From positions 53,632,001 through 53,696,000 of the forward strand of contig OZ076409.1 of assembly GCA_964187785.1 (NCBI GenBank): 64,000 bases of DNA, in the 5' to 3' direction. The translations under genes were made by a program, and so were the position numbers. Below the pieces are notes generated by a model. It was given only the letters and a program-made list of their open reading frames with translations. It had not been told where the DNA came from and searched no databases. This stretch comes from Amphiscolops sp. MND2022. Lineage: Eukaryota. The stretch's first letter is position 1, and each line of letters starts with the position of its first letter. Below, in pieces: positions 30,901-33,900 of the stretch.

Positions 30901-33900
30901 AGAATATTTTGCTTTCGGTGAAGCAGTGAGGAGGGCGGTTTTGCTTTCAATAGAGCAGCGAGAAATCTGTAGTACTTGGCAATACAGGTGATTTGTTCAA
31001 ATTGAACTGAAAAGAGAGCAAGAATGAATTCTGCTGAAATTTGACAATTTAGTCAAGAGTAAGTGGATGATAGTCCTTTTCGTGAAAGATTGTTATAAAT
31101 ACACGTCTAAATACCGTGTCTTCCCGCTTAAGAAAAGTGTTCTGTTTGAAACAGACAAAAGTGAATAGTAGCGAGGAGTTATTTATAGACGGCAGAGTTT
31201 GACACTTAGGTCTTTACCGTCTCTTCTTGCAAGGTAATGTAGCACACGTCTAAAAACCGTGTCTTCCTGCTAAATAAAAGTGATCTCTTTGAGACCAAGA
31301 AAAAAGGAAAATAGGAGCAGGGAGTTATTTATAGACGGCAGAGTTTGACACTTAGGTCTTTACCGTCTCTTCTTGCCTGAGAAAGAGAAAGTTAAAAAAA
31401 GTTAAGTAAAGGCAAGGTTACACGTCCAAAACCCGTGTCTTCCTACCAGCAGAAAAAAGTGATCTGAATGGCCAGTTCAGAACAATGAGAAGAATAAAGG
31501 TAGGGAGTTATTTATACACGGCAGAGTTTGATGCAAACCGTCGTTTGATCTTTACCGTGTCTTTGTCAAACTTTGTGACAAAAATTGTAATATACGTCTA
31601 TACACCGTATCTTCGTTGAGCTATGCAACGGAGTTATTTATACACGGCAGAGATTGATACTGAGATCGTTACCGTGTCTTCTTGCAAGGATAAAATTGAA
31701 TACGCACGTCCAAAACCCGTGCCTTCCTGCTAGAGAAAAGTGATCTGTTTTAGATCGATGAAAAATGAGAGCAGGGAGTTATTTATACACGGCAGAGTTT
31801 GATACTGAGATCGTTACCGTGTCTTGCACCTAAAAAGAAGAAGTTGAAAAAAGTTTAATTAAACACAGTACACAGTAAATAAAAGAAATAAAAAAAGGCA
31901 GGAAACAGATTTATTTTTGCAAGCTGAGGATTTCTTTTATTTTTGTGATGTAGAATTCTTCAAAGGAGCCAAGTCCCGTTTCCATAAAAGAAGACAATTC
32001 TTCTAGGAGTGGTAGATCAAAGGGTTGTATATTCGTTTCAGGGCTATCGATGTAGACTGATAAGGCGATGGCTAATTCAGCAAAGAATTTTGTTTTCTCT
32101 TCTACTCTTATGAAGACTTTGGTTTTGGGCTTTAATACTGTATAGCCTCTAGCTGTAAGCCAAAATTGGTATCGGTATGACCACTGCAGTTCCTTCACAA
32201 TTAATAGTTCAGGGCTTTTGATGGGGTCGACTATATTATAGAGTGATACTGGAAGTTTTAGTTTAACTGTTTCAATTGCGTCTTCTTCCCAGAGGTTGTG
32301 GATGAACATTGATTTTTATTGACTTCTCCGTTTTCTATTTTGAGGGAGTTGATTTCTTGCTAATTGGGGGAGTAGTTGTGGAAGGTTGCGTCTGGTCCAA
32401 ATTTGTCTGACGATTTCTTCTTGTAGACTGAAGCTCATTCACTTTTATTTATGCTGCTGTTGTATCGGCTAACTCTCCAAGGATGTGGAGTTGAAATTGG
32501 GTGATGTGTGACTCTGGTTCTTCAGCGTAGTTATCCAAAGCCTCAGATAGTTGTTCTCGGAGAAATCTATTACTAGCGATTTCTAAAGTGGAGACTTTGC
32601 TTTTATTATTTACAGGATGTATTGTTATCAGAATGAAGCTGGGTTTGATAAAGGACCACTTGAGTTTGATGATATTGAAGTTTTCAGTGACGCCTGCTGG
32701 AGTAGTTATTTTAAACGGACAGTTGAAATTGACTTCTTCAATACATTCGTTATTAAGGTGAAAGTTCATATCTAGCTACTTTTGTCAATGTTTTCCGAAT
32801 GCATCTATGGGTTTATTGTATCAGTTAATTCTCCAAGAGCGTGAAGTTGATACTGTTCAACGTGCTGTTCTGGGTTCCGGAGGTATTCGTCTATTGCTTT
32901 ACCAAGTTGGGCTTCAAGAAGGGTATCTGGTGCTATTTCGAAGGTGGTTATTTTTGTCGCTGATGGGGTGTAAAGTCACGGAGATGAAACAAGGTGAAAT
33001 GAGTGACCATCTGAGTTTGGTAATTATGAAATCTTCAGAATTGCCTGAGGGGGTTGTTATCGTCCAGGGGCAGTTAAATTCTATTTCGTCGATTTCTCCT
33101 TCAGAGAGGAAGATTACGCTCATAGTTATATACTATTGTCAGCATTTAGGAATGCATCCGTTGGTGCGTTTCCAAAGAAGAGGAAAATGTGGTGAAAGTA
33201 GTCCCAATATATAGACGTTGGGGGAACAGTGATGACTTTCTTCTGTTTTGTTTGGTGGTGTTGGAGGGAAACGTGAAAAGTCAAATTTCGGGATTCTTGT
33301 TTAACTATTCTGTAGAAATCGTTGTTTATCTTGATGTACATTTACTGTCGGTTATTCGTCTTTTTGCGTCGTTTGGTTTTAATATTGCTGAAACACAACA
33401 AAAACATGCGCATCGTTAAAACGATCGCTTTGGAGTTAGATAGAATATTTCTTTTTGCTCAAAACAGAGGAGCTAGAGGTCAAAAAATGATTTGTGATAT
33501 TAATTGGGGAATAAGGCGCTTCATGACTAAAATGAGATTTAAAAGTGAAGTGGTAAATTACTTTTGAATACAATAAAGAGTTTTTGCGGCAAGTTAATTT
33601 ATTTGTTCTATTGAGGAGGAGCTGAAGTGGTTTGGCGGCTGAAATGAAAGCTAGTTATGGAGCTGAAAAGACAATAAATAAAAACGTGAACAAAGACATT
33701 AAATTACTTTTTATGTGAGATGAAAGAATACATGAATAAAGCAATTATTTGATAAAGTTGAGTTATTTGGCGACTGAAAACAAAAGATAGTTATGAACAA
33801 AAGTGAAGCGTGAACAAAAGTTAAATTGAAGAAAGAAGTTGATAATATAACAAAAGTTTGAACAAAGCATAACTTTACTACTTCAAGATAAAGTAAGTTG

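Follow-up and report, generated by a model that had tools for sequence, protein, structure and literature searches.

Introduction

The usual scheme of an invertebrate LTR element is gag-pol-env, and proteins of the TRAF/MATH and macrodomain types are deployed by viruses against innate immunity. We focus here on a family of small genes between pol and env of an LTR element, found in a window of 64,000 nucleotides (the whole stretch of DNA analysed), and on how it compares with the systems described so far. First of all, the gB-type (class III) 'errantiviruses' of invertebrates, as presented in PMC13524379, are like our element in their gag-pol-env layout, their class III env and their many near-identical young copies. 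Our element, on the other hand, has some nine further ORFs, small or extra, together with a structured array, and the main text of that paper is without the terms 'accessory', 'TRAF', 'macro' or 'small ORF'. Accessory ORFs of the MATH/TRAF kind are described for the Burro elements of planarians in PMC6431247. Second, the U1, U2 and U3 (PMIP) genes of the hapaviruses, as set out in PMC4334499, are closest in layout, being a tandem set of three small paralogues, diverged and of unknown function, that lies between core genes of rhabdoviruses, in a virus family where stop-start packing is common, as it is here. A hapavirus is, however, a negative-strand RNA virus with one transcription unit per gene (PMC4334499), whereas contraction intermediates and chimeras are visible in our elements; as for homology, Foldseek on viral models, an indirect comparison, gave no match. 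Third, the poxvirus K3L accordion, in the account of PMC9973261, likewise has recombination expand and collapse tandem copies of a small gene outside the core set, but poxvirus arrays are transient and near-identical and have a known host target, while the copies here are long-lived and without detected positive selection. The present family behaves as an accordion of accessory genes would, yet falls outside the poxvirus definition because its copies are not transient. Finally, CERV of the C. elegans element Cer1 (PMC10309623) and VANC of the Arabidopsis VANDAL elements (PMC5735166) are described there as element-encoded accessory proteins acting on their own RNA or repeat DNA; likened by description, the family studied here differs in being multi-copy, mostly acidic and untied to a single repeat motif. 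A literature search, which had most subscription journals outside its reach, found no description of this protein family, which is real, selected, dynamic and apparently undescribed.

The host element

The features discussed below are collected in Table 1. The two LTRs of the element are 100% identical, begin with TG and end with CA, and a 4-bp target-site duplication flanks the element, which we thus take to be a very young insertion. Pfam domains in an 1819-aa ORF downstream of gag follow the order protease, RT, RNase H and integrase, and Pol has a weak macrodomain match (E 0.019). ORF153 and the TRAF/MATH ORF lie downstream of env in all three families of this genome considered here, namely the window's own (A) and the sister families B and C. 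Assigned from its layout and domains, the element fits the gB-type envelope-carrying Ty3/gypsy elements as PMC13524379 presents them.

Between the primer site and gag lies a pair of small hydrophobic ORFs that resemble each other (46 and 50 aa; 41706-41995, minus strand), and related elements have two or three hydrophobic small ORFs at that spot (L145:76-204; L146:243-915). By description only, these ORFs recall the short transmembrane sORF2 fusogens reported in 10.1101/2025.03.14.642691. Each LTR also contains an 87-bp tandem repeat of 4.6 copies that are 98% alike (26097-26494; 43160-43557).

Table 1. Features of the element and of its accessory region, in window coordinates
Feature	Position	Strand	Basis or remark
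Ty3/Gypsy LTR element with envelope gene	24965..44213	minus	LTRs, target-site duplication, gag/pol/env domains
LTRs	24965-27150 and 42028-44213		2186 bp each
ORF153, and a coiled-coil plus TRAF/MATH ORF, after env	27209..28655	minus	TRAF/MATH: PF21355, E 1e-22
env, class III fusion glycoprotein	28682..30817	minus	PF24664, E 1e-39
Five hairpin motifs in ATG-free leader before env	31101..31827	minus	compensatory pairs, ATG count
Paralogue 3, long form, 132 aa, C-terminal extension	31911..32309	minus	homology, dN/dS
ORF40, conserved 36-40-aa Arg-rich peptide, pI 12, outside the family	32316..32438	minus	dN/dS
Paralogue 2, short form, 106 aa	32449..32769	minus	AlphaFold2 model, dN/dS
Spacer between paralogues 1 and 2	32770..32810	minus	resembles 3' end of ORF71 (sequences side by side, by eye)
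Paralogue 1, frameshift-broken near the middle, break private to this insertion	32805..33123	minus	homology, locus comparison
ORF71, conserved gene of 71 aa, coupled to the gene that follows	33126..33341	minus	dN/dS 0.13; family B homologue ~40% identical

Three paralogous genes between pol and env

A first-pass annotation of the window had placed three small paralogous ORFs between pol and env on the minus strand; they are present where it put them (copies 1-3, the paralogues of Table 1), and shuffling supports their homology. Copy 1, with an X at its break, is identical to copy 2 at 48/94 positions (z 48), and copy 3 is identical to copy 1 at 22/98 (z 10.7) and to copy 2 at 28/98 (z 9.2), none of these scores being reached in 2000 shuffles. 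Overall identity among the copies is 22-53%, and synonymous sites are saturated between copies 1 and 2. The motifs proposed as shared are complete in copies 1 and 2, whereas copy 3 has LP instead of CP, lacks the His at the PE.H position and has an extra C-terminal segment. ORF71 and ORF40 have no pairwise similarity to any of the three. In searches of the animal-sized genome (1.07 Gb), copy 2, copy 3 and ORF71 each had at least 150 scored matches; among the copy 2 matches listed, 139 of 150 stand at 72% identity or more, and copy 3 exists as two old alleles about 72% identical.

For comparison across insertions, 110 loci of the family were fetched, the window's own included; they were hand-picked, partly for divergence, so their proportions are not population frequencies. 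The stretch across the break in copy 1 occurs in one of the 110, the window's own, and copy 1 is open (100-125 aa) in 53 of the 60 loci with three genes. It follows that the frameshift, for which recoding had been raised as one explanation, reflects either a mutation private to this insertion or an error of assembly. Programmed recoding might draw on the locus of the other allele (L042) in which copy 1 breaks at about the same codon, but the shift site is not conserved across copies, and in the other five of the six further three-gene loci without an open copy 1 the frame shifts at a different place (one locus), meets stops (three) or lacks a start (one); we thus regard recoding as barely credible.

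Predicted protein and fold searches

An AlphaFold2 model of copy 2, built with 29 aligned members (pLDDT 85.5, pTM 0.74), predicts a compact protein with a four-strand sheet followed by two helices; long forms such as copy 3 have the added C-terminal segment and, by eye, a more hydrophobic first helix. Across 29 diverse members no column is invariant and a single Trp alone is kept at 90% or more, and there is thus no obvious catalytic set. Of 17 members checked, 13 are acidic (pI under 5.5), the five family A proteins having a pI of 4.4-5.3 and the second copy of family B being basic (pI 8.8); members have no membrane anchor and no Arg-rich tract.

Searches with these proteins and models returned no known family or fold. 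Pfam gave no family match for the single ORFs or for 26 members, PDB sequences searched with a profile gave a best E of 0.53, and ESM Atlas and phage records held neither a family nor a fold match. Foldseek found nothing among viral models at E 0.001, nor in the PDB, where the first, weaker model alone was used, and VIA-align over 48,161 chains reached a best Z of 5.2 with the weak and 4.1 with the good model, which is no fold match. The first model gave weak rows resembling SAS-6/XRCC4; these no longer ranked at the top once the better model was used, and the likeness was set aside. The absence of fold matches is not a demonstration of a new fold.

Selection on the accessory genes

Purifying selection on the paralogues, which the first reading had taken from protein similarity, extends to all five genes, with dN/dS on internal branches well away from 1: 0.19 for copy 1, 0.25 for copy 2, 0.14 for copy 3, 0.13 for ORF71 and 0.18 for ORF40. 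These values come from a custom codon model that ignores recombination and uses 30 sequences per gene (of 36, 53, 60, 77 and 55 available), and under this model neutrality is rejected for each of the five (2dL 30-136). Pairwise counts for distant pairs agree, giving 0.10-0.22 for all five ORFs. On terminal branches, which include post-insertion decay, dN/dS is 0.38-0.92 across the five genes, with ORF40 at 0.92. No positively selected sites were found in the five genes (M2a against M1a, p 0.8-1.0; 30 sequences per gene, recombination ignored). The N-terminus of env has an internal dN/dS of 0.03 (10/21 loci), while a pol control retained 3/21 loci and was dropped. The five genes are constrained, yet freer than a core gene such as the env N-terminus.

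Gain, loss and chimeras of tandem copies

The expansion had been likened to an accordion, and gain and loss of tandem copies is indeed seen among the 110 loci of this one genome: three genes are present in 60 and two in 40, the other 10 being incomplete or rearranged. What had been called a triplication thus holds for this element but is not a fixed number, two-gene forms being common. The single slot of the 40 two-gene loci is occupied by copy 1 in 15, by copy 2 in 10 and by a chimera in 15. All 15 chimeras, with at least two breakpoints among them, run from copy 1 into copy 2, the direction expected from collapse of a tandem pair. One chimeric type has LTRs 99.9-100% identical in 4/4 copies checked and a second has LTRs 98.5-98.8% identical in 2/2, and contracted forms have thus gone on inserting. 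Copies 1 and 2 are separated by a spacer that, by eye, resembles the 3' end of ORF71, which would mark the junction of their doubling. This pair could have arisen either by duplication or by the joining of two old alleles that had shared a slot. For ORF71, copy 1 and copy 3, old alleles (dS 0.7-0.9 or more) are found in mixed combinations.

We propose that template switching in reverse transcription would add and remove copies, that the long form (copy 3) would be kept beside at least one short form, whether copy 1, copy 2 or their chimera, on account of a distinct job of its own, and that copies 1 and 2 would be largely interchangeable variants. The same facts can be read more sparingly, with an ancient long/short pair serving a job internal to the element and the doubling of copies 1 and 2 being a near-neutral by-product of template switching, with no accordion adaptation. 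The presence of copy-1-only, copy-2-only and chimeric forms side by side, the continued insertion of contracted forms and the lack of positive selection all suit this account, but copies 1 and 2 are both under purifying selection in spite of their saturated synonymous sites, and duplication has recurred in sister families; we therefore consider it unlikely.

Relatives in sister families and other elements

The genes are also present in related elements, with members in families B and C and in pre-gag relatives. A profile search gave 46 representatives at 50% clustering, two of these being unrelated repetitive proteins, and 151 proteins at 90% clustering, where 120/120 of those listed are ENA records. 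In family B (pol ~70% identical) the order is member, hairpin array, ORF71 homologue, member and env, and a tree groups its two members together. Topology tests, in which the groups were named after the first tree was seen and two branches are long, reject the pairing of copy 3 with either family B copy (p-AU 0.001 and 0.012) and do not reject monophyly of copies 1-3 (p-AU 0.20). This suggests that duplication happened more than once, one copy ending on a long branch in each case. In family C (pol ~57% identical), one member lies right after pol and one before env in 3/3 elements, and the similarity was as high in 0/1000 shuffles in the one element tested. A second 131-aa ORF of family C was rejected as a member, its profile score being matched by 253/1000 shuffles. 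Elements from another source have a single member directly before gag (L145, L146), and seven database proteins of this pre-gag subtype run on into Gag; in this genome the best match to the subtype is 47%, which is not a close copy. Family members thus occupy three positions across lineages: before gag, after pol and before env.

These positions could point to a component of particle formation or trafficking, such as a matrix-like linker of capsid and envelope or a budding adaptor, with extra copies tuning dose. The single copy directly before gag would fit such a role, as would the presence of env together with at least two members in all three families of this genome and purifying selection without positive selection. 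On the other hand, the proteins are mostly acidic and have no membrane anchor, they are 20-50% identical where the gag N-terminus is ~55-63% identical across the same lineages, chimeras are tolerated, and no viral structure matches; we consider a particle role improbable.

Function and significance

The reading that we tentatively favour, and hold at somewhat short of an even balance, is that the three ORFs belong to one small, conserved family of accessory proteins in Ty3/Gypsy elements with an envelope, that recombination raises and lowers the number of copies, and that the proteins likely act as soluble adaptors for a host protein, itself most likely a component of a defence pathway, and would in this way help the element spread. 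This rests on several features. First of all, the proteins are small and mostly acidic, with a compact predicted fold and no obvious catalytic set, which suggests host-binding adaptors. Second, their internal-branch dN/dS of 0.13-0.25, against 0.03 for the env N-terminus, points the same way, to genes that are constrained but freer. Third, the shifts in position between lineages suggest a portable accessory gene. Finally, repeated duplication with one fast-diverging copy, in elements with TRAF/MATH and probably macrodomain modules, is reminiscent of viral accessory adaptors. The more specific role of host-defence antagonist, put forward in the first-pass annotation, is an inference: positive selection and a fold match were looked for, and neither was found. 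Against host binding stand the absence of positively selected sites, which an arms race would often leave, the basic second copy of family B and the lack of a sequence or fold link to a known antagonist. Furthermore, insertions of two-gene chimeras are as recent as those of three-gene forms (LTRs 99.9-100% identical), so that the third copy has no visible advantage, although help in trans is possible.

A wider proposal, which we regard as possible but distinctly doubtful, is that a clade of animal envelope-bearing retrotransposons has a complex-virus-style accessory operon, with a fold that has no solved relative, amplified, diversified and chimerized to match host defence, and that it points to an unknown invertebrate restriction pathway. 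If true, one genome would hold a gene accordion in all its states. Beyond the usual gag-pol-env scheme, these elements have a conserved and probably polycistronic block of accessory genes, along with a gene family that changes position, duplicates repeatedly and collapses into chimeras. The more than 100 datable copies in one genome are a natural series for studying the origin of retroelement accessory genes. Since the proteins are small, with a good predicted fold and no matched one, structure determination combined with pull-downs could reveal a new host pathway acting on retroelements.

ORF71, ORF40, the hairpin array and expression

ORF71 had been suggested by eye as a fourth paralogue, and profile comparison did not support this; its score against one family C member is weak (z 4.5, 1/500 shuffles). 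A 73-aa ORF of family C (L161:4983-5201) occupies the position of ORF71 and aligns with it weakly from end to end (z 3.3, 5/500 shuffles). ORF40 is open in 55 of the 60 three-gene loci and has no internal ATG; tblastn detected no homologue in family B. Judged by its sequence, it is a candidate RNA-binding or nuclear regulator.

The hairpin motif is 45 nt long, with two stems, a fixed internal loop and an A-rich tail; it is repeated 8-14 times in young family B copies (L130, L133, L135-L138). Among 119 distinct motifs, compensatory pairs are seen at two places (CG 79 and GC 33; TA 95 and CG 14), two pairs being fixed by the search pattern itself. Family C has a different repeat before env, of three units of ~155 nt (L167:3775-4230), with hairpins and, by eye, possible pairing of a loop to downstream sequence. 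Rfam held no match for the family A/B array or for the family C repeat, and the hairpin pattern had none in viral contigs.

It had been suggested that the paralogues bind this adjacent RNA array, which is disfavoured by the low pI of 13/17 members and by the absence of the motif from family C and from three short pre-gag loci. In a broader form, they would be regulators like Rev, CERV or VANC that bind the array as RNA or DNA and control export, translation or silencing. A structured repeat array does adjoin members in families A, B and C, and CERV and VANC, as described in PMC10309623 and PMC5735166, offer precedents. However, the proteins are acidic and have no Arg-rich tract, families A and B share the motif though their proteins are ~30% identical, the family C repeat is unrelated and the short pre-gag loci have no motif. 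ORF40 is a better RNA-binding candidate, and a cis role in translation, in a leader free of ATG, explains the array alone; we thus think array regulation by the paralogues quite unlikely.

The leader from the stop of copy 3 to the start of env (30818-31910, minus strand) contains 0 ATG in 1093 nt, against 9 expected and 12 on the other strand, with odds that are overstated since repeats are not independent; the array stretch of family B likewise contains 0. From ORF71 to env (2524 nt) there are 11 ATG against 26 expected, whereas non-coding sequence downstream of pol has about the expected number (14 against 13.6). Tested gene by gene, the depletion is less marked (P 0.03 for copy 3 and 0.11 for copy 2), and family B genes show none. 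Stop-to-start gaps across copies are -1 to 3 nt from ORF71 to the next gene, mostly 10 nt from copy 2 to ORF40 and 0-8 nt from ORF40 to copy 3. Such stop-start packing, together with AUG depletion, points to a polycistronic message, and the arrangement suits expression from a spliced polycistronic RNA through leaky scanning and stop-start reinitiation, a scheme that we put forward from the sequence features. A TURBS-like pentamer in 76/94 ORF71 copies was discounted, since a Trp codon fixes its sequence. Possible splice acceptors, in the form of pyrimidine-rich tracts that end in AG, are found 6-46 nt upstream of the start codons of env (30817), ORF153 (28655), ORF71 (33341) and two family B genes (L130).
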